DNA of 64,000 nt from Deltaproteobacteria bacterium (GCA_016180805.1 JACPAM010000109.1:734-64733); one strand, 5' to 3'. Counted from the stretch's first letter, positions 11,297-55,463 are shown. Numbers and translations: made by a program. Notes: generated from the letters alone by a model not told the origin.

Positions 11297-11431
11297 CGTT
11301 TCTCCCTCCCTCTCCAATAAATAATACCGCCGCCTGGGTCGTTGTTGGGTGGAGAGTATCCAGTCACCTCCTTGTATGTCAAACTGAGGCGAGCCCAAAC
11401 GAAGTGCTGCTACCACCGGATCGCCTTGGCG

Positions 11432-23889: not shown

Positions 23890-24894
23890 CTACCCGCCGA
23901 GCCGCTTCAGCGCCTCCTGGCGGTACGAGTCGTCGATGAACATCGACGCGGGATAAGCCTTTTCCAGGGCCTTGCGCTCGACCTCGAGGTTGATCACCGT
24001 CTCGATGCCTTTGATGCTGGGGGCGGCGTCATTGCGGATCGGCCGCAAATCTTCCATCACCTCTTTGTAGGCCAGCGCGGCATATTTCGGACTGATCTTG
24101 AAGTGGTTGAGCATCGCTTTGATGGTCGTTTCCTTGTTCTTGGGATCGGTCATGAATCTCATCGCCTTGATCATCGCCATCAGATAGCGCACGGTAACGT
24201 CCCGGTGGCTTTCCATCCACCTCGCATGTCCCGCAATCGTGGTGAATTGATAGTCCGGAAGATAGGTCGCGATGTTTGCGACGACATTCAAGCCTTCCTC
24301 TTTGGCCTGATAGGAGGTCGGGATAGTGACCATGGCACCGGAAACCGCGCCTTTTTTGACGGCAGCATAGCGCTGCGGAGTGCCCCCTACGGTCAACAGA
24401 TCGTAATCTCCAGGATACTTAAGCCCGTGCGCGGACATGATCTTCTGCAACAGGGCCGTGCTTCCCGAGGTCAGATTGATGACCCCGAAGGTGGTCCCTT
24501 TGAGATCCTCTACCTTCTTATATTTGGGGCCGGTAATGAGATCGTAGATCGCTTTGGTATAATTCCCCGCGACGATTTTGATCGGAGCATTCTTGATCAT
24601 GGCCGTGATCGAGCCCTGCGTGTTCGTGGGGTAAAGTATGTCGGTGGAGTTAGCGGATAAAGCCTGGATTGCTTTAGCGATCGAATTCGTCTGGAACTCA
24701 CGCAGCTCGAGATTCTGTTCTTTGAAATAGCCTTGATCTATGGCCACCCATATGGGCCAATGATCCCCTCCCGTGGATAGAATCCCGAGTTTGATCTCGT
24801 CTGCCGCGCGTAGCTGGCCGGGCAGGAAGATGACAAGCAAAGCCGCGGCAGTAAGCCCGATTACTGACTTCGGCACCACCGATCTTAAGTCCAT
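23890..24894 (-). CDS. ABC transporter substrate-binding protein, NMT1/SsuA/TauA family
   Basis: 334 aa with signal peptide. Last gene of the minus-strand ABC operon. Confidence 0.75.
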   Translation of the reverse strand: MDLRSVVPKSVIGLTAAALLVIFLPGQLRAADEIKLGILSTGGDHWPIWVAIDQGYFKEQNLELREFQTNSIAKAIQALSANSTDILYPTNTQGSITAMIKNAPIKIVAGNYTKAIYDLITGPKYKKVEDLKGTTFGVINLTSGSTALLQKIMSAHGLKYPGDYDLLTVGGTPQRYAAVKKGAVSGAMVTIPTSYQAKEEGLNVVANIATYLPDYQFTTIAGHARWMESHRDVTVRYLMAMIKAMRFMTDPKNKETTIKAMLNHFKISPKYAALAYKEVMEDLRPIRNDAAPSIKGIETVINLEVERKALEKAYPASMFIDDSYRQEALKRLGG

Positions 24895-24936: not shown

Positions 24937-25719
24937 TTATACCCTATACTCGTACCACGGAGCAATCCTGCGCTCCGCGTATTTCAACAGCTCAAACGTC
25001 GTGTAACCTCCGATCGCCAACAGCACCACCCCGACGAATGCGTCGGCTGTTCGGAAGGCCTCCGAGGCCTCCGAGATCAGATAGCCGATTCCCGCCCTGG
25101 AGCCGAAAAACTCGCTCACGATCGCGCCGATGATGGCCCGCCCTACGCTCAAACGAAGGCCGGTCATGAGCAGCGGGAGCGCGCTCGGCACGGTCACCTT
25201 GAAAAATATTTGTCTCCCGGTCCCGCCGAAGGCGCGCACCGCTTCGACCAAGCGACGGTCGACCGTGGTGATACCCGTATACGTGTTGAACAACACGGGG
25301 AAGACCGCACCGATGAAAACGATGGCGATCTTCGAGGCGATGCCGACGCCAAGGGCGGTGATAAAAAGCGGCGCGAGGAGAATAATCGGAGCGTTATAAG
25401 AAATCGTTACCCAAGGATTCAGGATGTCTTTGGCGGTCCGGCTGAGCGCCATCAAAACGCCCAGGCCGATCCCGATCACGACGCCGACCAGATAACCCAG
25501 GATGAATTCGACAAACGTCGCATAGACATGGCGCGCGATCTCACCCCGCGCGAGCAGGTTCATGAAGGCTTCGGCGATCCGCGAAGGCCCGACGAGGATC
25601 AGCGGATTGTCGATGAAGAGGCCATCGACGATGTCCCACGCCACGATCCCCAGGATGACCGACGCGACGGCGTCAACCTTCTTCTCGTTCGCGCGATAGA
25701 TCTGCCTCAGCCATCCCAT
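24937..25719 (-). CDS. ABC transporter permease (SsuC/TauC-type)
   Basis: 260 aa, BPD_transp_1-type profile. Confidence 0.8.
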   Translation of the reverse strand: MGWLRQIYRANEKKVDAVASVILGIVAWDIVDGLFIDNPLILVGPSRIAEAFMNLLARGEIARHVYATFVEFILGYLVGVVIGIGLGVLMALSRTAKDILNPWVTISYNAPIILLAPLFITALGVGIASKIAIVFIGAVFPVLFNTYTGITTVDRRLVEAVRAFGGTGRQIFFKVTVPSALPLLMTGLRLSVGRAIIGAIVSEFFGSRAGIGYLISEASEAFRTADAFVGVVLLAIGGYTTFELLKYAERRIAPWYEYRV

Positions 25720-25721
25720 CG

Positions 25722-26573
25722 TTATTCCATCTCCATGCCGTGGACCTCACGCCGAACCTGATACGCGTACCAGGGAGAAATCCATCCCTGGACTTTGTCT
25801 AGCGCAATGAACGACAGAATGCCGAACACGACCAGAACCACGATCCCGACAAACACCGGGCCGGGCTGAAAGAGCTGAGAATAGAAGTACACCATATACC
25901 CAAGCCCGGCTTCCGCCCCAAACCACTCGGCCACCACCACGCCGATGACGGCGCGACCCACCGCGAGCCGGAGCCCCGCGATGATCGCGGGAGTCGCATC
26001 CGGAATCATAACCTTGAAGAACACCTGGAGCGGCGACCCGCCAAAGGCCCTCACCAGCTCGATGAGATTCTGCCTGACGGATTTGATGCCGGTGTACGTG
26101 TTTAGCAGGATCGGAAAGACGGCCCCGAGGAAGACAATCAGCGCGTTCGGGAAGATCCCCAGCCCAAACCAGACGATGATGATCGGGGCCAGGGCAACGC
26201 GGGGGGTGGCGTAAATGCAGGAGACCCATGGGTCGAGGCAGGTGTTGATCTTTTTTTGCGTCGCCATGAGAAACCCCACGGGGATCCCAACCACGACGGA
26301 CAATACAAATCCGTACGCGAATTCCAGGAGGCTGAAATAAGAGTGCCTGAAAAGCTCTCCGCTTCGATAAAGCTCGCCGAAGGTCTCGATCACCTGAAGC
26401 GGCGAAGCGAGGAAGTGCTGGATCGCATAAGCCTCAAAGTAAGGAGTCCGAGCCAAACCCTCGTAGGCAAGCTGCCAGATGCCGATCCCAACAACCACCG
26501 AGTATATGGCGATCATCCGGGATGAGCGCGCCCAAGCGGGGACACGAGGCTCTGCTTTCGCCACGGTCTTCAC
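25722..26573 (-). CDS. ABC transporter permease (SsuC/TauC-type), second permease
   Basis: The ORF extends to 26828, but a GTG at 26573 overlaps the ATPase TGA (GTGA) and gives a short positively charged N-terminus before TM1. The start is uncertain; the alternative is ATG 26516. Confidence 0.65.
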   Translation of the reverse strand: MKTVAKAEPRVPAWARSSRMIAIYSVVVGIGIWQLAYEGLARTPYFEAYAIQHFLASPLQVIETFGELYRSGELFRHSYFSLLEFAYGFVLSVVVGIPVGFLMATQKKINTCLDPWVSCIYATPRVALAPIIIVWFGLGIFPNALIVFLGAVFPILLNTYTGIKSVRQNLIELVRAFGGSPLQVFFKVMIPDATPAIIAGLRLAVGRAVIGVVVAEWFGAEAGLGYMVYFYSQLFQPGPVFVGIVVLVVFGILSFIALDKVQGWISPWYAYQVRREVHGMEME

Positions 26574-27388
26574 CGCATCCCTTCCTCGCGCTCTCTTCCC
26601 ATGGACTTGAGCACCTCGTCCTGGATGATGCTCCAGACGCGATCGGCGAGATCGAGAAATTCCTTGGTTCTTTTGACGCTCAGCGAACGGGGTCGAGGAA
26701 TGCTCACTTTGACGATCTCTCGGATGGTGGCGGGACGGGCCGAGAACACCACCACCCGGTCCGAGAGGAAAATCGCCTCTTCGATCTGGTGGGTGACGAA
26801 GATCACGGTCTTCCTCGTCTGGTTCCACATCTTTAAGAGCTCGGCTTGCATGATCTCCCGCGTTTGCGCGTCCAACGACGCGAAAGGCTCATCCATGAGG
26901 AGCACCTGCGGGTCAACGATCAGGGCGCGCGCCAGGTTGACGCGCTGCTGCATCCCTCCGGAAAGCTCGTGAGGATAGTGATTCTCAAAACCCGCGAGTC
27001 CCACGAGCGAAATATACCCTCCCGCTTTCCTCCTCGCCTCTCGCGTATCGACTCCCTGAAGCTCGAGGCCCAGAATGACGTTATCCATGACCGTGCGCCA
27101 AGGCAGAAGGGAAGAGTCCTGAAAGACGAACCCCTTGTCCGGGCCGGGCTTGATAACGGTCTTGCCGTCGAGAAGGATCTCTCCATCATCGTGGGAGATG
27201 AGCCCGTCGAGGATGCGCAAAAAAGTCGTCTTCCCGCACCCGCTCGGTCCCACCAGGGAGATGAACTCCGAAGGATGAACCTCCAGAGAAATATCTTCAA
27301 ACACCTGGACCGATTCCTCGGATCTCTGGCTGCGGAAAGCCTTGCGTAAATTGCGCACGACGAGTTTCGATGCAGGAGTTTCCATCAT
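26570..27388 (-). CDS. ABC transporter ATP-binding protein (SsuB/TauB/NitT family)
   Basis: Walker A GPSGCGKTT, signature LSGGMQQR. Confidence 0.85.
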   Translation of the reverse strand: MMETPASKLVVRNLRKAFRSQRSEESVQVFEDISLEVHPSEFISLVGPSGCGKTTFLRILDGLISHDDGEILLDGKTVIKPGPDKGFVFQDSSLLPWRTVMDNVILGLELQGVDTREARRKAGGYISLVGLAGFENHYPHELSGGMQQRVNLARALIVDPQVLLMDEPFASLDAQTREIMQAELLKMWNQTRKTVIFVTHQIEEAIFLSDRVVVFSARPATIREIVKVSIPRPRSLSVKRTKEFLDLADRVWSIIQDEVLKSMGREREEGMR

Positions 27389-27399
27389 ACCTCGGCCGC

Positions 27400-27560
27400 G
27401 TTCCCTCGAAAGCTCCTCGGGGGCCCGATCCGCCTCAGGCGGACGCGCACGTGCTTATCCGCGACCGAGGGGAGCGCGAGCGAGGCTGCGGACGTCCGAT
27501 TACAGACGGCACGACTCATGGCACGAACCCATCGGCCGCAGCCGAGAGCCCTTCCTATGC
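27400..27560 (+). repeat. structured intergenic repeat family, copy 3
   Basis: CCCTCGAAAGCTCCTCGGGGGCC..CGCCTCAGGCGG..GCGACCGAGGGGAGCGCGAGCGAGGCTGCGGACGTCCGATTACAGACGGCACGACTCATGGCACGAACCCATCGGCCGCAGCCGAGAG. Confidence 0.7.
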
Positions 27561-27607
27561 AAGGGCGAAAACTGTTTCACGAGCGTTCCTCTGCACCTTC
27601 CAGATGT

Positions 27608-28078
27608 CTAACGCCGGGCTCCCTCCAATGCCTCTACGATGGTATCCCCTTCCAGAGCCAGCTCGAGCGTGCCGAGAAGCTCGTCGTACTTCTCTCCGCC
27701 GATCATGGCTTTCATTGCGGGCTCGAAGACATGGTAGGTATCGAGGCCGAGCTCGACCCCGGTCAACGGACCCGAGTAGGTGGGATCACCGCGGGTGACC
27801 GTCTCGAATTGAATCAGGGAGCTATCGACGTTGGGCGCTCCCAGGAGTACAACGAGATTATTTCTGCCAAGACTTTCGGCGAGTTCTTTGATTCGACCTT
27901 GAACCTCAAGGTCCATGGCGCCGGCCGCGGTTCAGACAAAGCACTGCGTCGTGGAATAGACGATTTCCGCGCCGAGGTCTCCCACTGCCTCCTCGATCGT
28001 CTGCGCCGGGACTCCGTCCCTCTCTCCGAGGATGATGAGCTTTTTCCCCGCTAAACCCAGTTCCTTTGTGCCTGCCAT
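27608..28078 (-). CDS. grdA: glycine/sarcosine/betaine reductase complex selenoprotein A (GrdA), in-frame TGA = selenocysteine at 27932-27934
   Basis: Minus-strand translation from ATG 28078 (SD AAAGGACGGCGGAGG) gives MAGTKELGLAGKKLIILGERDGVPAQTIEEAVGDLGAEIVYSTTQCFV-U-TAAGAMDLEVQGRIKELAESLGRNNLVVLLGAPNVD...GDPTYSGPLTGVELGL... This matches GrdA, including the conserved CFVU-TAAGAMDLE redox motif. The ORF track reports only the post-TGA part (27608..27916). Confidence 0.85.
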
Positions 28079-28104
28079 AAGAACCTCCGCCGTCCTTTCT
28101 TTGC

Positions 28105-29550
28105 CTAAGGATGCCGCGCGAGCAAAACCGACATGCCATCGCTCAGTTGGGTCATCTGTCCGAGGAACAAACTCGCCCGGGCGAAAAGAAAACAGTTCCG
28201 AGCTTCCCCCTCGGTCAATTCCCGGTGCGCATGGGGAAGATAAGCCAGGGCCGAAGCGATATGCCCCTGGGTCGGGGCAAAACCAGGAACCCCTTTTCGC
28301 TTCATGAAGTCCTGCATCTCAGAGCGCGCCATCTTACCGCCGGAAACCAAGACTGCAGCCAGCATCTTGTAGTTGCGCTCCGGGATATCGCCGCCGTTGG
28401 CCGGCACGGTGATCTCGGGATTGTGCAGCTCGGTCACGAATCTGTCCACAGAGGCTGCGGTTAAATCCAACCGCTCCATCGGCTCCAGCACGATCGCCTT
28501 GAGCTGCTTATCCAACGCCGCCCCTGACCGCACCGGGTGACGCCCCACGCTGGCGAGGTTGATTACCGGGCTTTTGCCATCGTCCCGCCCGATCCAAACC
28601 GCGGCCGCAGCCAGCACGTCCTCGAGCACCGGCATGCCCTTCTCCAAATGGTAGAGAAATTTCATACCGAGTTTCGGGAGCGAGGCGCCGCCGACAACGA
28701 CGACGTTCTCAAAGACACCGCTGTGCACCAGCGCGGCTCCGGTCACGAGAGCCGGAATCGGGGCGGCGCAGAAGTTTTTGATGTCCATACCGGAGGCCAG
28801 CACGCAACCAGCAAACTCGGCCACGGCCTTGGCGAGATTGCCGCCGCCGCGCTGGTAGCGATCTCCGACCGCCTCCTCCGAACAGCTCAAGACGTAGTCG
28901 ACTTTCTGTTCCGAGAGCGCAGGATGGCGCATCAGGAGCTCGCGAACCGCCAAGGCCGCGGAAACCTTGACACAGAGATTCTCTAGCAAAACGTTCGCCG
29001 TAAGCGAGCCATCCTCATGATGCGCGTGTCTGATCCAGCCGATCGGTTGAGAATCGGTGCCGGTAAAGAGCGCGATCCCGTCCCCCTTGGCTATATCGGC
29101 GCGGAGCCGGTCGCGCGTGACGAGCGAGGGCGAGACTGTAGCCAAGGGCTGGAACAGCGGCACCGCCCGCAAACGCGGGCTGATATCCTGCCAAAAACCT
29201 TCAAATAAAGAAACGTGTTTGAAGACATCAGCGAGGGCCACAAGCCCGACGAAAGATCGCTCATCGATGAAATCGCCGAAGGCCCGACGATCGTTCGCGA
29301 GCGGTGATGGCCGCCCATACCACGGCCTTTCTACCTCGTAAAGGCTGGAGATGGGCGTCTGGCCAAGAAACACCCGGTTCGGCAAGTAAGCCTCGGCCTG
29401 TTCATGGGATTGGAGGCTCTTTTGAAGCTCATCAAGCCTCGAAGGGCGGTCTTGAATCTCCCGCCACGGCTTGGAGCCATAGCGGACGAGCCCGGGGGCG
29501 TGGATCAACACGCTGCTTGCGCCGTTAACAACGGGGGTGAAGCTCGCCAT
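28105..29550 (-). CDS. grdC: glycine/sarcosine/betaine reductase complex component C beta-subunit-like protein (GrdC)
   Basis: 481 aa. Blocks VLIHAPG, QRGGGNLAKAVAEFAG, KNFCAAP, NYKMLAAV, APTQGHI and GxxSLFLGQMT align with GrdC as recalled from memory. Confidence 0.65.
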   Translation of the reverse strand: MASFTPVVNGASSVLIHAPGLVRYGSKPWREIQDRPSRLDELQKSLQSHEQAEAYLPNRVFLGQTPISSLYEVERPWYGRPSPLANDRRAFGDFIDERSFVGLVALADVFKHVSLFEGFWQDISPRLRAVPLFQPLATVSPSLVTRDRLRADIAKGDGIALFTGTDSQPIGWIRHAHHEDGSLTANVLLENLCVKVSAALAVRELLMRHPALSEQKVDYVLSCSEEAVGDRYQRGGGNLAKAVAEFAGCVLASGMDIKNFCAAPIPALVTGAALVHSGVFENVVVVGGASLPKLGMKFLYHLEKGMPVLEDVLAAAAVWIGRDDGKSPVINLASVGRHPVRSGAALDKQLKAIVLEPMERLDLTAASVDRFVTELHNPEITVPANGGDIPERNYKMLAAVLVSGGKMARSEMQDFMKRKGVPGFAPTQGHIASALAYLPHAHRELTEGEARNCFLFARASLFLGQMTQLSDGMSVLLARHP

Positions 29551-29555
29551 CCTTC

Positions 29556-29700
29556 AAAACTCTCCGGCATTCCTTCGAAAGCTCCTCGGGGCCGAGCCGC
29601 CTCAGGCGACCGAGCAGAGGGCTTCGGGACTCCCTTCGCTCCACGGGACTGCGCGACGCGACCCCAGTTTGGTCTATTTCGTCATTTAGTCTTTGCATCG
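29556..29700 (+). repeat. structured intergenic repeat family, copy 4 (partial/divergent), inside the grd cluster
   Basis: Shares CTTCGAAAGCTCCTCGGGGCC..GCCGCCTCAGGCG with copy 3. Inserted between grdE and grdC. Confidence 0.55.
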
Positions 29701-29785
29701 ACCGAATGACCAAACGACCAGATAGACCAAAAACCACCCGGCGTAGTCCATCGTCCACGGGCTTCTTTCTCGTCCCTGCGCCGCC

Positions 29786-31090
29786 TCAGTAGGCTCTACA
29801 GGTCCACGACTGCCTTCCCCAATTGTCGACTCCGCCGATCACCATATCGCGCGCATCGAATGTCAGAGGGCCGCTCGCGGGCGTCAGGGGCGCCCCGGGA
29901 TAATTGAGCACCCGGATCTCCTCGTAGGGGCCGATGACTTTCTCCGGCGCCGGCAGCTCCACCCAACGATCGCGGCTTCCTGTGCTGACAACGGCCTGAG
30001 CCTCGGGAACGTAATAGAGCAGCGGGGAGTCGACCCCGTCTTTGCCACCATACTCGTAAGTCACGAGCACTGTTTTGATGCCGCGCTGCTCGCAGGCCCT
30101 AAGCGTGAGCATAACATCGACGAAGGCATTTCCCGAACCCAGCCAGGTCACCACGGCGCCGTCGGCGCCGAGGGTTTTTGCTAAATGCGCCGCGTTGTGC
30201 GCCGTGACCTCCTTCCCGTGATAGGTCTCGAAGCGGACCCGCTCGAGCGCGACGCCGGCAAAATTAAGCTCTTTTCCATGACGCCGATAAAGCTCCATCG
30301 CCAGGGCATGATTTTGCCAATCCCAGGTGTTCGGAAAGTAGCCGATCCCTCGCGTGGTATTGACCGTCACCGCGCCATCCAATAGCTCGTTGGGATGGGC
30401 GAAGGTCGCCAGGGAATCCCGGATCGACAAACCGTAGTAGGCAACACCCGAGTGGAACTGATGGGATTCGGTGAGACAACCCTGAATGAGCACGACCGTT
30501 GGCAGGTCCCGATTTTTTCTTGCCAGATCGTAGGTCTCAACCTTTTGGGGCTCCTTTCCGAGTGTCACCTCGGCCAGCCGCCGCGCCGCGTGAAGCTCGG
30601 CCTTCTGCACGGCCAGGTGAGCCTCCAGGTCGGGAAGACCCCCGGCAAGGCGCAGGATCAAGACCAAATTGACCAACGAGCCATAGCGCGAAATCTCCGC
30701 TCCCGCTCCCCACATATCGAGGACGGCGCTGCGCTGCACGCCGGTCCCGGCCCGGACTGCACCCTCGAATTCCGCCGTAGCCACCACGGCCATACCGGAA
30801 AGCCGGTGCGTTGTTCCCTCTCCGACTGGAGCCACCGGTCCAAGCACGCCGGGAAAAACCTGTCCGCTTCCTTGAGTCTTGACTCTCGGCTCAACAACGT
30901 CCCGGATCCCGGTGATTCTGACCTTCTCTCCCGGGTACGCGACTGCGACCTTCGCCTCCCGAATCCGCGGGTCTTTCAGCAGATCCCGGGCAAGCGTCTC
31001 TGCGTCTACCTCCAGAGTCCCGGACTGATACTGGAACTTATTTCCCAGAACGATCCTGCTTACCGGGAACTCTGCCAGGTCAAGTCGCAT
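29786..31090 (-). CDS. grdE: glycine/sarcosine/betaine reductase component B proprotein subunit (GrdE/GrdG/GrdI family)
   Basis: 434 aa. MRLDLAEF..., the block AYPGEKVRITGIRDVVEPRVKTQGSGQVFPGVL and ...LGADGAVVTWLGSGNAFVDVMLTLRACEQRGIKTVLVTYEYGGKDG match GrdE-family proteins as recalled from memory. Follows grdB by 15 nt. Confidence 0.65.
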   Translation of the reverse strand: MRLDLAEFPVSRIVLGNKFQYQSGTLEVDAETLARDLLKDPRIREAKVAVAYPGEKVRITGIRDVVEPRVKTQGSGQVFPGVLGPVAPVGEGTTHRLSGMAVVATAEFEGAVRAGTGVQRSAVLDMWGAGAEISRYGSLVNLVLILRLAGGLPDLEAHLAVQKAELHAARRLAEVTLGKEPQKVETYDLARKNRDLPTVVLIQGCLTESHQFHSGVAYYGLSIRDSLATFAHPNELLDGAVTVNTTRGIGYFPNTWDWQNHALAMELYRRHGKELNFAGVALERVRFETYHGKEVTAHNAAHLAKTLGADGAVVTWLGSGNAFVDVMLTLRACEQRGIKTVLVTYEYGGKDGVDSPLLYYVPEAQAVVSTGSRDRWVELPAPEKVIGPYEEIRVLNYPGAPLTPASGPLTFDARDMVIGGVDNWGRQSWTCRAY

Positions 31091-31105
31091 CCACCTTTTC
31101 TCGAA

Positions 31106-32437
31106 TCACACGGTCGCGGAAATGTTCGGATAGAATAACGTCGGCTGTTTAACCTCCGCATGGATGGCCTTGAGCGCGGTCTCCACGATCTCGCGTCTCA
31201 GCCGTGCATCGACCTCGGACGGCAGACTGGGATCACCGCACGGATGCGGAATGCTCACGGCTTTGACGATCCGGCTCGCTCCGACCTGCTCCGCGATCGG
31301 ATACATAGCGCTGATAATCGCCACCGGCAATCCCGCTCGATCAATTTCCTTGCTAATCACAGCACCGCTGCGACTGCACGTCCCTCAGGTCGCTACCAAT
31401 AGGACCCCATCGATCTGCTCCTTCTTGAGGTCGGCGGCGATCTCCTGCCCGATGCGCTTCATGACCGAGGGCGATCCCTGGTTCCCTGGAACGACGTAGT
31501 AGCTGTGGTAGAGGCGGAATCTTCCATCGGATTCCGACGCGCGCAACGCGTCGAGAGGCAATCCATAATGGGGGTTCTGATTCATGAACGCGACGTTGTA
31601 ACCGCCGTGAACTGCCTCCCACTTTCCCGGCTCCAAGACCTTCAATTCCGAAATATTGTACTTCTGCCAAAACGTGTTGCGGTAGGTCTTGAAACGGTCC
31701 GGATTGCCCCACGGCACCACCCCGCTAGTGGTAATCACGGCGATGGTCGCCTGCCGCTCCGGCGAAAGCGGCGGCGCCGGCACCGCGCGATCCCAGATTT
31801 GCACCGGAACTTCGGTCACGAAAGGCTCATTGCGGAGCCGTTTGAGAAGCATCTCGACGGCGCGCTCCACGCCGGGCCGGTCGGTCCGCTCGAGCCGCCG
31901 GATGCCCCGAGGGATATAGCCTTCTTCTCTCGCCGGTCCCAACTCCTCGCCACTCCCCAACCTGCAGGCGAATCCTGCCATCGCCATCAAAGCCTCGTTC
32001 ATCCCTGCAGCCGTCTCTCTAGTGGGCAGCAAATAGACGTTGAGATCGTGGTACCCGCGATAGGCGTCCACCGCGGGATTTTCCTCGTGCATCGCAGTCA
32101 CGCATGGAATTCCCAAACTCTCCGCCACGCCGTGACAAACCTCCACACAGCCGACCCCGTAGCGTCCAGAGTTGAAGGCGGGACCAGCAACGACCACCTG
32201 GGGCTTGCGGGAGCCGATTTCTTTGAGAATGGCGGCCTTGGCCTCTTCAGGGTGTTCGTGAAAGTAGTTGTCGCCGAAATAGATCGTCGCGACGACCTTG
32301 CCCTTATCACCGAGCTGTGCCTGTAAGCCACGCGCCGCTCCCGTCGCGCCCTCGGCTGTCCCCACGGGCACTCCCGCCTTATCCTCGCCCCCCAGACCGG
32401 CGAAGAATTGATTGATGACGTGGACAACAGTGACCAT
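31106..32437 (-). CDS. grdB: glycine/sarcosine/betaine reductase selenoprotein B (GrdB/GrdF/GrdH family), in-frame TGA = selenocysteine at 31385-31387
   Basis: ATG 32437 with an AAGGAGG SD. MVTVVHVINQFFAGLGGEDKA...AGPAFNSGRYG... runs to ...DGVLLVAT-TGA(U)-GTCSRSGAVISKEIDRAGLPVAIISAMYPIAEQVGASRIVKAVSIPHPCGDPSL... This reproduces the conserved ...T-U-GTC..GA motif and C-terminal tail of GrdB. The ORF track splits it into 31385..32437 and 31106..31360. Confidence 0.85.
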
Positions 32438-32654
32438 GATCGTTACCTCCTTGCGCTGTTTACCCCAGCCACCGAGACTTTGTCAACGCTGCCGTTTTGC
32501 CTTGATTCCCGGCTCTTTCGGGGCCTATAGTGACCCGCGTAAGCCCGGCAGTCTCAAAGGAGGAAGCTATGTTTCCCCATCGCAAAAATTTCAACTTGAA
32601 ACGGCAGACAAAAGGGACAATGGCTGAGACTGATTTAAGCAAGGAGGGCACGAA

Positions 32655-34070
32655 ATGGCCAAGGATATGCGAACTTTTATCGATCAGGTAGTCCGAGAAC
32701 GTCCGGGGGAAATTTTGGTCGTCAATGAAGAGGTAGACCCAAAGTTTGGGATAACGGGAATAGCTTCTAAGCTGGCTAGCCGGAATCGTTTCCCCGCGGT
32801 CTTGTGCCGCAAAGTCCGAGGGTCGCAGTTGCCCGTCATTATTAATCTCACTGCCAGCTATGAGCGGTTGGCTTTGGCTCTCGGGACGACAATGGCGAGC
32901 ATGGTTCCAGATTACGCCAACCGTCCTTCAGCCAAGATCCAACCGAAGATCGTCGAAAGATCCAAGGCGCCGGTGAAGGAGATCATTCTCAAGGGAAAGG
33001 AAGCCAGGATGTCAGTCTTGCCGGTTCCCACTCACAACGAGCTTGACGCCGGCCCCTATATCACCGGAGGTACTTTGATCTGCAAAGATCCCGATTCCGG
33101 TGCGTTGAATACCGGCATGTACCGGATACAGGTGCAAAAAGAGCAGCAGTTGGGAATTTGGATGTGGGACACCCATCATGGTGCTCATATCCGGCGGAGG
33201 TATGAAGAGCTGGGAAGGGAGATGGAGGTGGCCATTGCTATTGGCCACCATCCCGCTTACATCATGGCCGCTGTTTCTACGCTCCCGGGGATAGGCGGAG
33301 AATTGGAAGAGGCCGGAGCCCTTCTCGGCGAGCCTCTTGAAGTTGTGCCTGCTGAGTCTGTCGATCTGCCTGTCCCGGCCAGGGCAGAGATCGTCATTGA
33401 AGGCAAGTTGCCTCCGGGAGAACGAGCCTTCGAAGGGCCGTTTGCTGAATGGCCGGGGACCTACGTGGCGGAAGGAGATAAGCCTTTTATTAGAGTCACT
33501 GCTATCACGATGCGTAAGGATGCCATCTACTATGACGTTTTCAGTTCCAATCGAGAGCACACGGTTTTGGGCAGCCTTCCACGAATGGGGGTTATTTACC
33601 GCACTGTCAAACAGTATGCGCCAGGAGTGAGGAACGTAAATATTCCCAGCCATGGACGCATGTACTGCTACATCTCGATAAAGAAAGAATCGGAAATGGA
33701 CGTAAAAAGGGCCGCCATGGCAGCCCTCAATGTCGAGCCCTTCAATCTGAAAACAGTCGTGGTCGTAGATGATGACATCGATGTCTTCAATGATGCCGAG
33801 GTCCTTTGGGCTATTGGAACCCGCTGCCATATGGAGAGAGATCTGACGCTGGTTCCTCGATTGGCTGGTCCTGGAGGGCTGAATCCCGTGGGCTATGAGT
33901 TTCATCCTGACGGCAGCAAGACTCCCGTTATGATCTCAGCCCTTATTGTGGATGCCACGAAGCCGGCACCGCCGACCCCTTACCCGCCGAGAGCCAGAGT
34001 GCCGCAAGAAGTTCTTGATCGTATCGATCTCGGTAAGCTGCTTAAGGAATTCAAGGGATTTGAGTGTTAA
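32655..34070 (+). CDS. UbiD-family (prFMN-dependent) decarboxylase, paralog 2
   Basis: 471 aa. Divergent from grdB with a 217-bp intergenic region. Confidence 0.85.
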   Translation: MAKDMRTFIDQVVRERPGEILVVNEEVDPKFGITGIASKLASRNRFPAVLCRKVRGSQLPVIINLTASYERLALALGTTMASMVPDYANRPSAKIQPKIVERSKAPVKEIILKGKEARMSVLPVPTHNELDAGPYITGGTLICKDPDSGALNTGMYRIQVQKEQQLGIWMWDTHHGAHIRRRYEELGREMEVAIAIGHHPAYIMAAVSTLPGIGGELEEAGALLGEPLEVVPAESVDLPVPARAEIVIEGKLPPGERAFEGPFAEWPGTYVAEGDKPFIRVTAITMRKDAIYYDVFSSNREHTVLGSLPRMGVIYRTVKQYAPGVRNVNIPSHGRMYCYISIKKESEMDVKRAAMAALNVEPFNLKTVVVVDDDIDVFNDAEVLWAIGTRCHMERDLTLVPRLAGPGGLNPVGYEFHPDGSKTPVMISALIVDATKPAPPTPYPPRARVPQEVLDRIDLGKLLKEFKGFEC

Positions 34071-34147: not shown

Positions 34148-34834
34148 ATGTTAACGCTGTACGAGTTGCTCGGCGCCGATGACCGGCGTTTTAGCCCTTA
34201 TTGCTGGCGCACGCGTATGGCGCTTGCCCACAAGGGACTAAAGGCGGAGATCATACCCTGTAAATTTACCGACAAGCACCTGTTTGCCTTCAGCGGGCAA
34301 GACAAAGTGCCTGTCCTTAAGGACGGCGACAGGGTGGTGTTCGATTCCTGGGACATCGCCTGTTATCTAGAAGACACTTATCCTGACCGGCCGTCGCTAT
34401 TCGGCGGCCCGGTAGGCCGTTGCGAGGCGCGCTTTTTCAACGAGTGGGCCCCTACCTTGAGCCGACTGTTTCTCCTGACCGTCATCAAGGACATCTTCGA
34501 CCATGTTCATCCGGACGATAAGGCTTACTTCCGCTTAAGCCGCGAACAGCGCTTTGGGAAGAGCCTGGAGCAACTAGGAGCTGAGAGCGATAACCACCGC
34601 GCCGCTATCGATGCGGCCATGGCGCCGCTTCGGGCAGTACTGGAGCACCAGCCGTTTTTCTGCGGCGATGCGCCGGCCTACGCGGACTATATCGTCTTCG
34701 GCCACTTTCAGATGGTCCGCAGCATCAGTCCCAAACGGTTTGTGGAAAAAGGAGACGCCTTGTACGAGTGGCGTAGCCGCATGCTGGATCTGTTCGACAG
34801 CCTCGGCCGTAGTGTAAATGCTTATCCTGAATAG
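34148..34834 (+). CDS. glutathione S-transferase family protein
   Basis: 228 aa with a thioredoxin-like N-domain and helical C-domain pattern. Confidence 0.65.
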   Translation: MLTLYELLGADDRRFSPYCWRTRMALAHKGLKAEIIPCKFTDKHLFAFSGQDKVPVLKDGDRVVFDSWDIACYLEDTYPDRPSLFGGPVGRCEARFFNEWAPTLSRLFLLTVIKDIFDHVHPDDKAYFRLSREQRFGKSLEQLGAESDNHRAAIDAAMAPLRAVLEHQPFFCGDAPAYADYIVFGHFQMVRSISPKRFVEKGDALYEWRSRMLDLFDSLGRSVNAYPE

Positions 34835-34926: not shown

Positions 34927-35718
34927 ATGCCTTACACCATAGCTACCGGAATTAGAATCCATTATGAGATCTGCGGGGAAGGATTTCCCTTTGTGTTGGT
35001 TCATGCCAACCCCTTTGACCACGATCTCTGGACGTACCAGATCGCGCACTTTTCAACGTACTTTAAGATCATTGCCGTCGATATCCGCGGTTACGGGCGG
35101 TCAGATAAACCCACCCATGAATTCAGCCTTCGGGACATGGCAGAAGACGTCTTGGGAGTTTGCCGCCATGAAGAGGTCAAACAGGCGATCGTTGGCGGAG
35201 TGAGCGTGGGATCGGGCATTGCCCTTCTCCTGGGGCTCGACCACCCGGAGATGTTCAAGGCCTTGATCCTGGTAGGGGGAAGCAGCGGGGGCGGCGCTCA
35301 CACTGAGGAAAGGATTCACGGATATACTGAAATCGGCGTTGAAAAGTATCATATTCGACATTTGGAAGAGCTCGTGAGCCCCGAGTTTCCGAGGACAAAA
35401 CTCGGAAGGTATCTGCTCCAGATATTCGCCGAGCGGGGACCATGGCTCTCAGGGGAGTCGATCGCGCAAATCTTTCGCGCTCGCGCGGGCACCGACATGA
35501 AAACCCGCCTCAGTTCGTTAAAGGTTCCTACCCTGGTCATCAACGGAGAATTGGATAGCTCACTGGAGGCCGGCCGAAGGACAGCCTCCGGGATACCTGG
35601 TGCGATCCACAGAGTCCTTCCCGGAACCGGTCATGCGTGCTGTATAGAGGACCCCGCTGGTTTTGATGCCTTTGTGGTTGAGTTCCTAAGCGCACAAGGT
35701 CTGATGCCTTCAACCTAG
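34927..35718 (+). CDS. alpha/beta-fold hydrolase (3-oxoadipate enol-lactonase-like)
   Basis: 263 aa. GVSVG nucleophile elbow, HG oxyanion, C-terminal GH. Confidence 0.7.
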   Translation: MPYTIATGIRIHYEICGEGFPFVLVHANPFDHDLWTYQIAHFSTYFKIIAVDIRGYGRSDKPTHEFSLRDMAEDVLGVCRHEEVKQAIVGGVSVGSGIALLLGLDHPEMFKALILVGGSSGGGAHTEERIHGYTEIGVEKYHIRHLEELVSPEFPRTKLGRYLLQIFAERGPWLSGESIAQIFRARAGTDMKTRLSSLKVPTLVINGELDSSLEAGRRTASGIPGAIHRVLPGTGHACCIEDPAGFDAFVVEFLSAQGLMPST

Positions 35719-35961: not shown

Positions 35962-37161
35962 TTATAAATCATTGGGCGCGAGTTGCAGACGGGCATCCTC
36001 CAAAAGAAACACTTTCAATCCGTCGGCAAATACCTGCACGCTGGCCCGAATATAGGGATGAGGATTCTCGCCAATTTCTTGCACAAACACCTCATAAACC
36101 ACGTGGCGCGATGCCGGATCGACCTGGCCACGGCATTTGAATCGCTGCGTATGCCCGGATACGGGTTCAAAGTGATGGCCATCACGCTCCAGCGAAAAGC
36201 CCATGTATAGCAGATAGAACGCCATAGCCTGCAGGCAGCCTTCAAGCATAAACGTCCCCGGCATCACGGGATCATTTTTAAAATGCACCTTAAAAAACCA
36301 TGTATTCGGATCTACATCCGCCTCCGCTCGAAGGTATCCACGTCCCCACGGCCCGCCTTTGAGATCAATGTTGCCAACCCGATCGAGAAAAAGGAGTCTA
36401 TCACCAGGCAGACGCGCTGGACGACGGTGGTCAGAAACTTCAAATTGTGGCCCGAAACAATGAGATAAACGACCTTTTGATAATGCGACTAACTGTTCCT
36501 TGTCGAAAGCCCGACGCTCGCAAGAAACGACGGGGGCGAGAAGAGGACCATCGAGCGCGATCCGATCTCTGTTCTTCAGAGGGTCCCAAAGGATGCCGCG
36601 GGCGCCAACAAGCTCCCCATGAGTGAAAAAACCTCCATTGCTATCGCCCTTTGATCTCAACTTCCCGCCGACAAAACATTGACACAGAAAGAACACAATT
36701 AGGGTTCCTTCTTGATTGACCAAACGGTTTAAACTGATTTTATGTCTTAGCTTATCACCAATCTTGGGAAGTCCGCCGTAAAACGTCACCTTAGAGCCTA
36801 AGAGGCGAAACCTCTTTGAACCGTTGTCGAGAAAGTCGATCCCCAACTTGCTGAGCAACAAAAGGATGCCCTGGCAGCATTCTGAATAAATACCCGGTGG
36901 AATGTATCCATCTTGTAGGTACCATTTGTCCTCCGTCAGATCCGTCTCGGATATGACAAATGAGCCTTCATAAACGCCGGGCCTTGCCTTTAGCTCTACG
37001 ATTCGATCTAACAACAAAAGAGGGGGACTTGGCAGTCGAATTCGTATAAGTCGATCATCCAAGATAGAGAATGCACTTCCAAAGAGGGTCGAAACTTTTC
37101 CTTCAGCATGAAACAACAAATCTTCAAACGAAAACGAAGCGGGCGCCGTATTCACTGTCAC
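35962..37161 (-). CDS. standalone tandem hot-dog (FabA/FabZ-like double dehydratase) protein, PUFA/polyketide-synthase DH-like
   Basis: 399 aa. Second half carries the HFKNDPVMPGTFMLEGCLQAMAFYL FabA/FabZ active-site motif, and the first half is a second hotdog fold. The region is visibly AT-richer (~48-50% GC) than its surroundings. Confidence 0.6.
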   Translation of the reverse strand: MTVNTAPASFSFEDLLFHAEGKVSTLFGSAFSILDDRLIRIRLPSPPLLLLDRIVELKARPGVYEGSFVISETDLTEDKWYLQDGYIPPGIYSECCQGILLLLSKLGIDFLDNGSKRFRLLGSKVTFYGGLPKIGDKLRHKISLNRLVNQEGTLIVFFLCQCFVGGKLRSKGDSNGGFFTHGELVGARGILWDPLKNRDRIALDGPLLAPVVSCERRAFDKEQLVALSKGRLSHCFGPQFEVSDHRRPARLPGDRLLFLDRVGNIDLKGGPWGRGYLRAEADVDPNTWFFKVHFKNDPVMPGTFMLEGCLQAMAFYLLYMGFSLERDGHHFEPVSGHTQRFKCRGQVDPASRHVVYEVFVQEIGENPHPYIRASVQVFADGLKVFLLEDARLQLAPNDL

Positions 37162-41169: not shown

Positions 41170-41973
41170 CTATGTCTCAGTGTTTTCAGCGTTTTCCTTC
41201 CAAAAGATAGTATTCTCGGGCGTTAGCACCTCACTTTCGCCCCGAAAATCACCCGCATAAGCCTCTCTTTCTTCCCGCAATACGTACGTTCCGCCGATCT
41301 CCGCGACTTTGCGATGTATGGCTTTGATCCCAAGCTCGTTCTTAACGTTGTCAATAAAAGCCGAACTGCCAACGGCGATAGCCTCTGACCAGCGATCGTC
41401 TCGCACCGCCATCCCGCGCATTAGCGCTTCCTCAACCCATTGGCGGTGTGCTTGCTGAAAATCCGCTACTTCCCCAAAGCCACATAAGGCGCTTAGGCCC
41501 CGAAGATCGATAATCCCATAGCGCTCGGGTGGCTTTTGAATCTCGCGGTAGCCACTCTGTGCCCATTCGCTTGGATGCTGAACCACACGTGCCCGTACCA
41601 TGTTCAAGTCAATATAGACAAGACAGCGATGCAGGTGCTCGTCGGCCTCGATAGCGGTGGCATGGTAACGATCCTCCCAGAACGCTCCCTGCCGCCCTTT
41701 GCGCTGGTTGTATTCTTGCGCGGTGCGTCCGGCAATTAGCTGCATGCTCTGCGGAATCACCTCTCGGCCCGTATCCCTTACCAGGAGATGCACGTGGTTG
41801 GACGTCACCATATAGTTAAGCACCGAGAGGCCGAATCGCTTTTTGGCCTTAAAGACCCAATGCAAGTAACGGCGTCGATCCCGCGCAAACTTCAAGAGGA
41901 ATGTCTTGTGGTGGCAGCGGTGAGTGATGTGCCAAATGTAGCCGGGCAGAAAATGGCGGCTGGCGCGGGGCAT
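41170..41973 (-). mobile_element. REP-associated tyrosine transposase (RAYT, IS200-like TnpA_REP)
   Basis: 267 aa. HuH motif NHVHLLV, RKGRQGAFWEDRYHA..., YIDLNMVRARVV..PSEWAQSGY with a catalytic Tyr. Flanked by the inverted 10-mers GGGTCGGACC (near 41146) and GGTCCGACCC (near 42083). Confidence 0.8.
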
Positions 41974-42176: not shown

Positions 42177-44429
42177 CTAAGAGGATGGCTCGTGGAGCAG
42201 CGCGTGGACGCGCTCGCTGGTCATTGGCAGGCGAACAACGCGGACGCCGATAGCGGCGCTCACCGCGTTAGCGACGGCTGCGCCCACAGGATCCAGAGTT
42301 CCCTCCGCGAAGCCTTTGGCACCGAAGGGACCTGTCGGCTCAGGGTCTTCGACGATCTCGACCGAGATCTCCTCGGGCACGTCGAAGCTGGTGGGGACGA
42401 GATAGGTGGCAAACGAAGGGTTGCTTACTCCTCCGTTAACTTTGACCTCCTCGGTGAGGGCGTATCCGATGCCCATCATCACGCCTCCCCTTACCTGCCC
42501 CTCCACAGTTATCGGGTTGATCAGGCGCCCAACATCGCACACGGCGGCGTAGCGTAACACTTGAACCTGCCCCGTTCCTTCGTCCACATCGACTAATGCG
42601 GCATGGGTGCTAAAGCTGTAAGTTCCCGCAGCACTCCCCTGCCCTGTTTCCGGATCCAGAGGTTCGGTCTCGGGCATAAAGTCCGCGACCGCGGTAATCT
42701 CATGATAAACATGTCTGTTGAAAAGATCGGCTAGAGTGATCCCGCGCTCGCGATACGCCACCACACCGTCCACCAACCTGAGATCTTCCGGGTCACACCC
42801 CAAATCCCGTCCCGCCAGCTCCAGCACTTGCCGCCGTACTTTTTCAGCGGCAAGCCGCACGGCGTTTCCTGAAAGGTAGGTAACCCGGCTCGCCGAAGTC
42901 GACTCGCAGTCGGGTGCAACGGCGGTGTCGTTGGTCAGAAGCTGAATCCGATCGACATCAACTCCCAGTACTTCAGCCGCCACCTGCGCCATCATAATGT
43001 CCGAGCCTTGGCCGAGATCGACGTGCCCGCAGGCTATCGTCACGCTGCCATCCGGACTGAGGGTTACAATAGCCGTGCTGCGGGACGATTTGCGGATGCT
43101 GCCGATGCTTCGGGTGCTGCATCCCACGCCGATCCCGCGCCGCTTTCCTTTCGGAGCCTTGGCCAGCAGTGGCTTGAAGGAGTCCGCGGCACGTTTCGTC
43201 CGCTGGAGCATCTCCTTGAACGGGACGCTCGCATGCAAAACCTGGCCTGTGGCAGTCGGCAACGTGGTATCCAGGGCGTTGCGCATCCTGACTTCGATCG
43301 GGTCGAGCCCGACACGGGTTGCCAATTCATCCATAAGAGATTCGAGGGCGAAAGCAATCTGAGGTATCCCGTAGCCGCGCATCGCGCCGCACGGGACCGT
43401 GTGGGTGAAGACAGCGTAGCCGTCAGCTTTCACACTGGGAATGTAATAGGGGCCGGTGACGTGGGTAACGGACTTCGTAATCACCGCTCGCCCCTCGTAG
43501 AGATACGCCCCGGTATCGCCTACCAGGGTCGCTTCGATGGCCAAGAGCTTGCCCTCTTTCGTGGCCCCGAGCTTGAGGTCCATCACGTAGGGGTGACGCT
43601 TGTGGCTGGCGATGATGGACTCGTCCCGCTGGTATTTGACCTTTGCGGGCCGCCCCGTCTTCCAGGCGATCAACGCGGCGCAACACTGAGCATGAGGAGT
43701 GAGCTTGCCGCCGAAGCCGCCGCCGGTAGTCATCTGGTGAACCCGAACACGGCTTTGGGGCAGCCCGAGCATGCGGGAGACTTCTTCCCGATCACGGTGA
43801 GGGTATTGCGTGGAAGACCAGATGGTTATCCCTCCTTGAGGATCGACGGCGGCCACGGCCCCCTCTGGCTCCATGTAGGCGTGCTCGATGCGCTGCGTGA
43901 AAAAACGCCTTTCGAGCACGACGGCCGCGTCCCGCAGCGCCGCTTGCACGTCGCCGCGACGAGCCTTGAAATGAGTCCCGATGTTTCCGGCAGGATGCAC
44001 CGAGGGCGCTCCCGGTTCCATCGCCTTCAGCGGATCCATCACCGCGGGTAGAACCTCGTAGTTGACCACAACCTGCGCCATCGCCTCCTCCGCAGCCCGC
44101 TCCGTCTCCGCCGCAACCACGGCAACCGCGTCACCAGCGAAGCGGACCACATCCCCGCACAGGATGGGTTGATCTTTGATGATGGCTCCGATCGAGTTGG
44201 CACCTGGGATATCTTGGGCGGTGAGAACCGCGAGCACCCCCGGATGCTTGAGCGCCCGCGAGGCATCAATGGAACGAACCCGCGCGTGGGGATGGGGGCT
44301 TCGAAGCACCTTACCGTAAATCATCCCCGGAAGCGCAAGGTCGTCGACGTATCGAGCCTCGCCGGCCACCTTTCCCGGCGCATCCTTCCGCAAGATAGGC
44401 TTGCCGATGATTTTCCCGACGTGATTCAC
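42177..44429 (-). CDS. xanthine dehydrogenase family molybdopterin-binding subunit (CoxL/HcrA-like)
   Basis: 750 aa. Aldehyde oxidase/xanthine dehydrogenase a/b hammerhead and MoCo-binding profile. Last gene of the FAD-FeS-Mo operon. Confidence 0.85.
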   Translation of the reverse strand: MNHVGKIIGKPILRKDAPGKVAGEARYVDDLALPGMIYGKVLRSPHPHARVRSIDASRALKHPGVLAVLTAQDIPGANSIGAIIKDQPILCGDVVRFAGDAVAVVAAETERAAEEAMAQVVVNYEVLPAVMDPLKAMEPGAPSVHPAGNIGTHFKARRGDVQAALRDAAVVLERRFFTQRIEHAYMEPEGAVAAVDPQGGITIWSSTQYPHRDREEVSRMLGLPQSRVRVHQMTTGGGFGGKLTPHAQCCAALIAWKTGRPAKVKYQRDESIIASHKRHPYVMDLKLGATKEGKLLAIEATLVGDTGAYLYEGRAVITKSVTHVTGPYYIPSVKADGYAVFTHTVPCGAMRGYGIPQIAFALESLMDELATRVGLDPIEVRMRNALDTTLPTATGQVLHASVPFKEMLQRTKRAADSFKPLLAKAPKGKRRGIGVGCSTRSIGSIRKSSRSTAIVTLSPDGSVTIACGHVDLGQGSDIMMAQVAAEVLGVDVDRIQLLTNDTAVAPDCESTSASRVTYLSGNAVRLAAEKVRRQVLELAGRDLGCDPEDLRLVDGVVAYRERGITLADLFNRHVYHEITAVADFMPETEPLDPETGQGSAAGTYSFSTHAALVDVDEGTGQVQVLRYAAVCDVGRLINPITVEGQVRGGVMMGIGYALTEEVKVNGGVSNPSFATYLVPTSFDVPEEISVEIVEDPEPTGPFGAKGFAEGTLDPVGAAVANAVSAAIGVRVVRLPMTSERVHALLHEPSS

Positions 44430-44432
44430 AAC

Positions 44433-44915
44433 TTACTTCCCCGCACGAAGAACTTTCCCCGCAGCCGCGATGGCTTTGGCGATGGCGACGTAGTCGGCGC
44501 ACCGGCAGAGATTCCCGGCGATTGCCAGCCGTATGTCTTCCGCCGCGGCCTCGGGCTCGTCGTCCAGCAGCGACTTGGCCGCCACGATCATCCCCGGAGA
44601 GCAGAAGCCGCACTGAACCGCGCCGTGATCGATAAAGGCCTGCTGTAACGGGTGTAGCCGCCCCGCCGAGCCGATCCCTTCGATGGTGGTCACGTTGGCT
44701 CCGTCGGCTTCGACCGCGAGGACAAGGCAGGAGTTCACGGCCTTCCCATTCATGATCACCGTGCAGGCGCCACAGTCGCCGGTCTCGCAGCCTTTCTTGG
44801 TTCCGACCATTCCCAGGCGGTAGCGCAAGAAATCCGCCAGGGTCTCGTTGGTAACCGCCGGGACATCGTGCACCGCGCCATTGATATTTACGCGAACGTT
44901 GCGGCGTTGATTCAT
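44433..44915 (-). CDS. (2Fe-2S)-binding subunit of xanthine dehydrogenase family enzyme (CoxS/HcrC-like)
   Basis: Start ATG 44915 (MNQRRNVRVNINGA) overlaps the FAD-subunit TGA (ATGA). Cys motifs CETGDCGAC, CGFC and CRC. Confidence 0.85.
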   Translation of the reverse strand: MNQRRNVRVNINGAVHDVPAVTNETLADFLRYRLGMVGTKKGCETGDCGACTVIMNGKAVNSCLVLAVEADGANVTTIEGIGSAGRLHPLQQAFIDHGAVQCGFCSPGMIVAAKSLLDDEPEAAAEDIRLAIAGNLCRCADYVAIAKAIAAAGKVLRAGK

Positions 44916-55132: not shown

Positions 55133-55410
55133 CTTGTTTGTGGCACACGCGAGCACTCCAGGTGCCATTTCTGGAAGTTACAGGACTGAGTAACGAGTGC
55201 TGAGGACTGAGCCTTCTTACTTGGCCCTCAGTCCTCATCGCTCAGTCCTATTTTTATTTGCGAATTTTCGGACTGTCTTTTTCCGGAAAATACAGATCGC
55301 AGAAGGGACAGTGAAAATCCATGCCGGATCCCAACATGTGGGGGTTGACGACAAAAATCTTTCTGCACTTTGGACAACTGACTTCTACGGCTTGACCCAT
55401 GGATTACTTC

Positions 55411-55463
55411 CTCTCACCCTCTCCCTACCCTCTCCCTGTGAGGGAGAGGGCAAGGGTGAGGGT
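55411..55463 (+). repeat. REP-like GC-rich palindromic element, copy 2 (CCCTCTCCC-tgtg-AGGGAGAGGG + CAAGGGTGAGGG), immediately 3-prime of UbiD paralog 3
   Basis: Same hairpin and GGGTGAGGG tail as the 1981-2014 element, in the same orientation. Abuts the TAA stop of the 55463..56911 gene. Confidence 0.6.

Follow-up and report, generated by a model that had tools for sequence, protein, structure and literature searches.

Most known selenoenzymes of the Grd type come from anaerobic Firmicutes, Spirochaetes and Synergistota; four substrates are known for them, besides fluoroacetate. FarB and FarE of Cloacibacillus form a GrdB/GrdE-type pair that acts on fluoroacetate, a non-amine X-CH2-COO- substrate, and feeds GrdA (PMC10838667). 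FarE has no processing cysteines and the CxxC that follows selenocysteine (Sec) is altered in FarB; GrdI and FarE likewise are partners without the pyruvoyl-forming cysteine, and in Cloacibacillus several substrate modules share one A/C set (PMC10838667). The canonical motif after Sec is given as UxxCxxC (Wagner 1999, as cited in PMC6778437). Here we describe a grdB-like gene with an in-frame UGA in a 64,000-nucleotide (nt) stretch of DNA from a Deltaproteobacteria bacterium (GCA_016180805.1, JACPAM010000109.1:734-64733; hereafter the window). Most probably it encodes, as one gene, the Sec-containing and substrate-specific 'protein B' of a Grd-type complex, and belongs to an uncharacterised class whose substrate likely needs no Schiff base.

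Two open reading frames (ORFs) are called separately at this position on the minus strand, 31385..32437 (350 amino acids (aa), ATG start) and 31106..31360 (84 aa, GTG start). The frame 32437..31106 contains 443 sense codons and a sole internal stop, the TGA at 31387..31385, where the translation runs ...QIDGVLLVAT, stop, GTCSRSGAVISKEIDRAG... A GGAGG box lies upstream of the ATG at 32437, and the gene has its own terminator, a second TGA at 31108..31106. As TGA ends this gene and 16 of the window's 52 long ORFs, it is a normal stop codon in the host genome. The juxtaposition of two ORFs at a TGA, taken alone, is not above chance: a scan of the whole window (58.5% GC) found about 85 TGAs flanked on both sides by at least 40 open codons, and because of these chance cases such a scan is unusable as evidence or for finding more selenoproteins.

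The union of the two ORFs is established by comparison. Against hidden Markov models (HMMs), the readthrough product scored 438.7 bits (cut-off 65.45) with NCBIfam TIGR01918, the glycine/betaine/sarcosine/D-proline family reductase selenoprotein B, over residues 4-435 and profile positions 2-430 of 431, and 371 bits with Pfam GRDB (PF07355) over residues 2-350. A tblastn search with GrdF from the Peptoclostridium (Eubacterium) acidaminophilum megaplasmid returned one segment spanning the TGA, in which residues 4-434 align to 32434..31133 at 40% identity (E 7e-108). The C-terminal tail thus aligns to the end of the family HMM, and also to the C-termini of GrdF, GrdH and GrdB. A scan of one genome per GTDB species gave 55 loci, 52 of them with 61-87% identity over the best segment. 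In all relatives with a readable site (more than 50 loci) the TGA occupies the identical codon and is followed by an invariant UG[TS]C[ST]RSG. The 79 codons 3' of the TGA are free of stops in 51 homologous tails (mean 77% protein identity to the window), and their nucleotide differences fall 809:320:2036 on codon positions 1:2:3; this dominance of the third position shows that the tail is translated and under purifying selection. A preliminary description of this DNA, made from the sequence alone, had joined ORFs 31385..32437 and 31106..31360 into one gene for a GRDB-family selenoprotein B. The single tblastn segment, the full-length HMM matches, the conserved TGA and the coding tail bear this out, and 32437..31106 is a single gene. 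The same description would have been refuted by a C-terminal 84 aa that did not align with the C-terminus of GrdB-family proteins, and this part does align.

The best 120 database relatives are recorded at 350-356 aa (with one of 313 and one of 383) and have therefore been cut at the UGA codon by gene callers; NCBI names relatives at superfamily level (selenoprotein B). The database copies retrieved are split into a protein of 350-353 aa and an orphan ORF of 66-84 aa. This split in all databases, the normal use of TGA as a stop in the genome and the absence of any Sec machinery from the DNA seen are what a true stop would predict, leaving a pseudogene or truncated gene with an 84-codon ORF behind it that would be unrelated or a remnant. 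Such a stop is so improbable that it can practically be dismissed, given that every readable relative keeps both the TGA and the downstream frame at the protein identities above, that the tail is under purifying selection and can be aligned with the C-terminal domain in characterised GrdF and GrdH, and that the freezing of synonymous sites coincides exactly with a hairpin also present in characterised selenoprotein genes.

This hairpin is formed by the 28 nt at 31378..31351, which fold into 12 base pairs with one bulged A and a GGU loop. It starts 6 nt downstream of the UGA, and its GGY loop lies 22-24 nt after the U of UGA. In the consensus of the bacterial selenocysteine insertion sequence (SECIS; Zhang and Gladyshev 2005), the apical loop reportedly contains G and comes some 20 nt behind the UGA, and the window hairpin fits this. 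The folding energy is -13.8 kcal/mol (z -2.76; 3 of 200 shuffles fold equally well), in a segment picked after the fold had been seen. Among 51 distinct family sequences, third-position entropy is zero in the stem codons AGU, CGC, AGC, GCU and GUG, the four-fold sites of CGC, GCU and GUG being invariant, whereas equally invariant residues outside the stem (Val-3, Thr-1, Gly+1, Thr+2, Ala+17) show 1.0-1.7 bits. Characterised grdB, grdF and grdH genes carry the hairpin CGUUGC-GGY-GCAACG at exactly the same codons. Stem pairing holds in 95.6% of the cells of a 50-sequence alignment, whereas sliding the 3' strand leaves no more than 59% paired, and two core pairs have changed in a compensatory manner (column 18-28 from CG to UA in 5 sequences, column 19-27 from AU to UA in 4). 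In addition, the Cys-to-Ser change at codon +6 (UGC to AGC) is mirrored by a synonymous GCA-to-GCU change in the opposing Ala codon. The RNA fold suggested in the preliminary description therefore yields, in silico, a SECIS-type hairpin. A second such hairpin, in grdA, is identical in all family copies of that gene.

We then compared the protein with the models of individual selenoprotein B classes. It scored 402.5 bits with the GrdB model TIGR01917 (cut-off 602.2), 419.3 with the GrdF model NF040794 (cut-off 800) and 379.7 with the GrdH model NF040795 (cut-off 775), the lowest of the three; the PrdB model TIGR04483 matched only residues 208-425, in the C-terminal half, with 77.9 bits (cut-off 300), and none of the six NCBIfam models that matched the B subunit is of the Far type. 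Identity is 42% to GrdB of A. noterae, 40% to GrdF and 36% to GrdH of Enterococcus gilvus; GrdB and GrdF share 65% with each other, GrdH shares 47-48% with both, and the window family averages 70%. The GrdB and GrdF motifs published by Nobu et al. 2022 (PMC9751293), run as regular expressions, matched the GrdB of control locus L065 and the GrdF of control locus L064, respectively. Neither matched the window protein or any of its 46 full-length relatives; the motifs comprise the elements YxN, CGD, [NF]AGRYG, AHGGxD / IHGGYDR and TxGNxTxV / TTGTGT. The redox motif reads UGTCSRS where the controls have UGTCTRC, so that only the first Cys remains and Ser stands in place of the second, as in 46/46 full-length relatives. 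The active-site context named in the preliminary description is accordingly recognisable as that of a selenoprotein B, but the second Cys of UxxCxxC is gone; the same description had looked to GrdB, GrdF and GrdH for a choice between glycine, sarcosine and betaine, and none of the three can be assigned. Judged by these profiles and motifs, the protein belongs to the selenoprotein-B superfamily but to no characterised substrate class, and the enzyme appears not to be an orthologue of GrdB, GrdF or GrdH. A PDB sequence search found no relative of the B-like or E-like protein and hence no structural template.

An ordinary glycine reductase GrdB, of the Stickland type or of the reductive glycine pathway, might have reached this state through its host's distance from Firmicutes. 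The grdA and grdC genes of the operon do score above equivalog cut-offs, the JGI annotation of relatives reads 'glycine reductase', and A. noterae GrdB gives the best pairwise identity, yet we consider this origin quite unlikely in view of the shortfall with TIGR01917, the absence from the whole family of a published motif that the control GrdB contains, and the UxxCxxS arrangement. The partner subunit, moreover, has no cysteine for the pyruvoyl group, which the binding of a primary amine requires (PMC10838667), and at least six paralogues in a genome, with 2-3 GrdE-like genes per GrdB-like gene, fit several substrates better than one.

The operon runs on the minus strand in the order grdB-like, grdE-like, grdC and grdA, followed by a NitT/TauT-type ATP-binding cassette (ABC) importer (Table 1). 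A second Sec-containing gene within 5 kb, also claimed in the preliminary description, is present as grdA (28078..27608, TGA 27934..27932, 189.6 bits with NF040748), which lies 3.4 kb away from the feature described here. The grdE-like subunit scored 220 bits with the GrdG model (cut-off 780) and 127.3 bits with the FarE model NF053623 (cut-off 675). Its sequence TVNTTRGIGY aligns with the canonical GrdE/GrdG segment SGNCV(S/A)(A/P)CDK and, in the window copy as in its relatives, the cleavage position holds no Cys; judged by sequence, the partner therefore cannot make the canonical pyruvoyl group. For this reason a Schiff base is probably not needed for the substrate, which would have a quaternary or otherwise good leaving group, as in betaine or fluoroacetate.

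A reductase for betaine or a closely related quaternary N-methyl glycine, functionally equivalent to GrdH/GrdI, would account for a partner that by sequence is of the unprocessed type, like GrdI. The partner also resembles GrdI (35.5%, 204 bits) slightly more than GrdG (31%, 195 bits), and some JGI relatives carry the name 'betaine reductase'. We regard this equivalence as unlikely because the GrdH model gave the lowest of the three class scores and identity to GrdH is only 36%, and because the importer is of the NitT/TauT type with an NMT1-like binding protein, whereas both characterised grdF and grdH loci have a BCCT carrier. The substrate is probably not glycine, sarcosine or betaine, and our preferred reading remains a protein B of a class of its own. 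The importer was tried as a guide to the substrate and rejected: no ABC component reaches any NCBIfam equivalog cut-off, and the best matches are of the SaoA/P/X, SsuC and TauC types.

The mechanism that we propose for this protein B follows the canonical Grd mechanism (Andreesen 2004), as far as it is summarised in PMC10838667 and PMC13188914. UGA-351 would be decoded as selenocysteine with help of the downstream hairpin. The GrdB-like protein would pair with the adjacent GrdE-like subunit, and the pair would bind an imported compound of the X-CH2-COO- type, probably delivered by the co-transcribed importer. Sec351 would then attack the alpha-carbon and displace X, giving a Se-carboxymethyl intermediate next to the thiol of Cys354. 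The carboxymethyl group would pass to the Sec of GrdA, where the cysteine of the CxxU motif may resolve it to an acetyl thioester, and GrdC would process this to an activated acetyl group, whether or not an unseen GrdD takes part. On the more speculative reading given below, candidate substrates would be carboxymethyl compounds of the sulfonium or another quaternary type, sulfoacetate, haloacetates and aryloxyacetates, among others, the aryloxyacetates being suggested only by the neighbouring UbiD, beta-etherase-like and PcaD-like genes.

Several points weigh against this reading. The full 66 nt after the UGA fold no better than shuffles, both in the grdB-like gene (z -0.25) and in grdA (z -0.07), and the z-scores of the hairpins alone come from windows picked after the fold was seen. 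An E-value scan of 27000-33000 found no Rfam SECIS family, only chance snoRNA and internal ribosome entry site matches. The covariation consists of few independent events, mainly between the family and the canonical clade, so that the comparative hairpin data may be taken as support rather than proof of a SECIS. No tRNA-Sec, selA, selB or selD was found in the window or fetched flanks, and the tRNAs of the window and 32 related loci are tRNA-Ser and tRNA-Arg only, with no tRNA-Sec; the capacity to decode Sec is therefore assumed. Queried by tblastn (E <= 1e-5) with GrdD, TrxB and Trx of E. gilvus, neither the 64-kb window nor the GTDB-scan relatives with their ±8 kb flanks gave a homologue. 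The only matches were the two Firmicute control loci (L065, L066), where grdD, trxB and trx lie next to grdC. The downstream half of the canonical pathway is thus incomplete as far as could be seen, and the three genes may be encoded elsewhere in the genome. Finally, an alternative processing site in the partner, for which Cys205 could serve, would undercut the argument that it has no pyruvoyl group.

Relatives of the gene come almost only from uncultured metagenome-assembled genomes (MAGs) of groundwater, soil and sediments, labelled Deltaproteobacteria, Candidatus Binatia, Syntrophobacter(aceae) or Thermodesulfobacteriota. The window's own proteins are present in four Logan assemblies. One MAG (JACQUW01) has at least 6 GrdB-like paralogues on different contigs, and 2-3 GrdE-like genes accompany each GrdB-like gene at L012, L015-L020, L026, L030, L032, L036, L048, L049, L051, L056 and L061. 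These GrdE-like genes often each adjoin an NMT1-type binding protein gene, and L026 has two tandem GrdB-GrdE modules. The grdC-grdA pair is present at only about a dozen loci (L006, L007/L060, L013-L018, L024, L053) and never with grdD, trxB or trx within ±8-10 kb; downstream of grdA in other loci lie unrelated genes (a TPR-sensor, patatin, a short-chain dehydrogenase/reductase). So many B/E modules with so few grdC-grdA loci fit an arrangement in which several substrate modules share one A/C set. In 8/8 relatives with Pfam-annotated neighbours, a gene for an NMT1-type binding protein is no more than about 10 kb away from the grdB/grdE pair, and in 6/8 it directly adjoins the pair. This adjacency needs caution, because the relatives' genomes also typically carry several NMT1/SsuA-like genes. 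Other recurrent neighbours of the pair are TctC binding proteins, UbiD decarboxylases and amidohydrolase_2.

We found no description of this selenoprotein B clade in the literature searched, nor any paper linking Binatia/Binatota with grdB, betaine reductase or selenocysteine. Every retrieved database copy of the gene family ends at the UGA, and joining the ORFs restores the catalytic Sec and the C-terminal domain. Taken together, the UxxCxxS motif, the non-pyruvoyl partner, the ABC importer, the absence of grdD and trx nearby and the expansion of paralogues mark a recognisable selenoprotein B as a divergent, uncharacterised variant. A separate and well-populated branch thus exists in Binatia-type bacteria. 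Its altered redox motif, its non-pyruvoyl partner and its dedicated ABC importers are pointers to additional reductive C-X cleavages that yield activated acetate, and the branch also hints at a dependence on selenium in a lineage that is widespread in soil and groundwater but poorly known. More speculatively, and with less than even confidence, we envisage a large clade of Sec-dependent, pyruvoyl-independent protein B reductases, expanded in uncultured soil and groundwater Binatia/'Deltaproteobacteria', in which modules tied to NMT1/SsuA proteins feed an apparently GrdD-less GrdA-GrdC and reductively cleave X-CH2-COO- compounds other than glycine, sarcosine or betaine.

Table 1 Features of the grd operon and importer genes, in window coordinates
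Feature	Position	Strand	Basis
grdB-like gene, 443-aa selenoprotein B family subunit, one UGA read through (putative)	31106..32437	-	Translation, PF07355, TIGR01918, tblastn with GrdF
UGA codon 351, putative selenocysteine reading, motif VAT-U-GTCSRSG	31385..31387	-	Conserved TGA; aligned with annotated Sec of GrdF/GrdH
SECIS-type hairpin of grdB-like gene, UGCAGUCGCAGC-GGU-GCUGUGAUUAGCA	31351..31378; core stem 31374..31356	-	Folding, comparative pairing, entropy
grdE-like partner subunit, 434 aa, without canonical cleavage/pyruvoyl cysteine	29786..31090	-	PF09338, 315 bits
grdC, reductase complex component C beta subunit, 481 aa	28105..29550	-	NF040746, 502.8 bits (cut-off 450)
grdA, selenoprotein A, 156 aa, UGA 27934..27932 in CFV-U-TAAG	27608..28078	-	NF040748, 189.6 bits (cut-off 130); PF04723
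SECIS-type hairpin of grdA, GACCUUGA-GGU-UCAAGGUC	27895..27913	-	-9.5 kcal/mol, z -3.36 (segment picked after folding)
ABC transporter ATPase, nitrate/sulfonate/taurine (NitT/TauT) group	26570..27388	-	SaoA 251/360 and TauB-type 235/357 (score/cut-off; below equivalog cut-offs); PF00005
ABC permease 1 (start codon approximate)	25722..26540	-	BPD_transp_1; SsuC/TauC-like, below cut-offs
ABC permease 2	24937..25719	-	NCBIfam/Pfam searches
NMT1/SsuA-like periplasmic substrate-binding protein	23890..24894	-	PF09084, PF13379

Some further observations concern the operon and its relatives. In the GrdE-like subunit, the family-specific Cys205 within LIQGC[LI]T (codon about 30478-30476) is kept by almost all of about 75 GrdE-like copies in L005-L063, and could be catalytic or an alternative processing site. 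A non-coding spacer of 235 nt (29551-29785) separates the grdE-like stop from the grdC start, the counterpart genes at L007 being about 4 nt apart; it contains no convincing promoter, terminator or Rfam match. Frameshifts break the grdB-like frames at L050, L054, L055 and L056, all on long-read-derived MAG contigs, and are probably assembly error rather than decay. Further divergent selenoprotein-B genes occur at L057 (8001-9302) and L053 (8001-9290), 39% and 43% identical to the window protein and with UGTGTRS and UGTGTRC, respectively, after the Sec. L057 shares a contig with the family member L039, and L053 has the layout ABC-grdC-grdA-grdE-grdB without grdD.

In the wider window there are four NMT1/SsuA-like binding protein genes (10238-11416, 23890-24894, 51526-52491, 57329-58282) and three UbiD-family decarboxylase paralogues (17058-18533 on the minus strand, 32655-34070 on the plus strand, 55463-56911 on the minus strand). 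The UbiD gene divergent from the grd operon is VdcC-like (283 bits, cut-off 650) and has a 94% identical orthologue in the same position at L005. A glutathione S-transferase (GST) gene at 34148-34834, with lignin beta-etherase as its best match (160 bits, cut-off 440), adjoins a 3-oxoadipate enol-lactonase-like (PcaD-like) hydrolase gene at 34927-35718. The pair is a hint of aromatic or aryl-ether catabolism beside the grd operon; as a clue to the substrate, these two genes and the recurrent neighbours of the grdB/grdE pair are a weak lead, because the genomes are rich in such genes. Also on the minus strand, 35962-37161 encodes a 399-aa protein that ends in a FabA-like dehydratase domain (PF07977, 159 bits) and whose N-terminal half matches no family, and 41170-41973 is an ORF that by eye resembles an IS200/REP-associated Y1 transposase, with an HxH-like SNHVHLL motif. 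Two molybdenum hydroxylase loci of the xanthine dehydrogenase/CO dehydrogenase family (42177-45805 and 52826-55168, both minus strand) were judged from their translations.

Among characterised systems, the betaine reductase GrdH/GrdI (E./P. acidaminophilum; E. gilvus, L066) shares with the window a Sec-containing subunit of about 440 aa and a SECIS hairpin in the same position. GrdI is a partner without a cleavage cysteine and carries no pyruvoyl group, the GrdE-like partner of the window looks alike by sequence, and both systems come with GrdA and GrdC. The window protein differs from GrdH by its 36% identity, its 380 bits against a cut-off of 775 and its UGTCSRS instead of UGTCTRC; its operon has an ABC importer where the grdF and grdH loci have BCCT carriers and, unlike L066, no adjacent grdD, trxB or trx. 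The glycine and sarcosine systems GrdB/GrdE (Acetoanaerobium noterae, L065) and GrdF/GrdG (P. acidaminophilum, L064) have the same architecture of 430-440 aa, which aligns end to end at 40-42% identity with the Sec in an equivalent position, and they have grdE-type, grdA and grdC neighbours in common with the window. In contrast to them, the window protein misses the class cut-offs and published motifs and has Ser for the second Cys of UxxCxxC, and its partner has TVNTTRG in place of SGNCV(S/A)(A/P)C. The FarB/FarE pair, a precedent in its non-amine substrate, its partner without processing cysteines and its altered CxxC, is likewise distinct: the FarE HMM gives the window partner only 127 of the 675 bits set as cut-off, the first Cys after the Sec is kept in the window protein, and the operon ORFs include no radical-SAM or antiporter gene, unlike the Far locus. 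The D-proline reductase PrdB/PrdA has a C-terminal Sec domain homologous to that of the window protein; Prd works without GrdA and GrdC, whereas the window operon has both.

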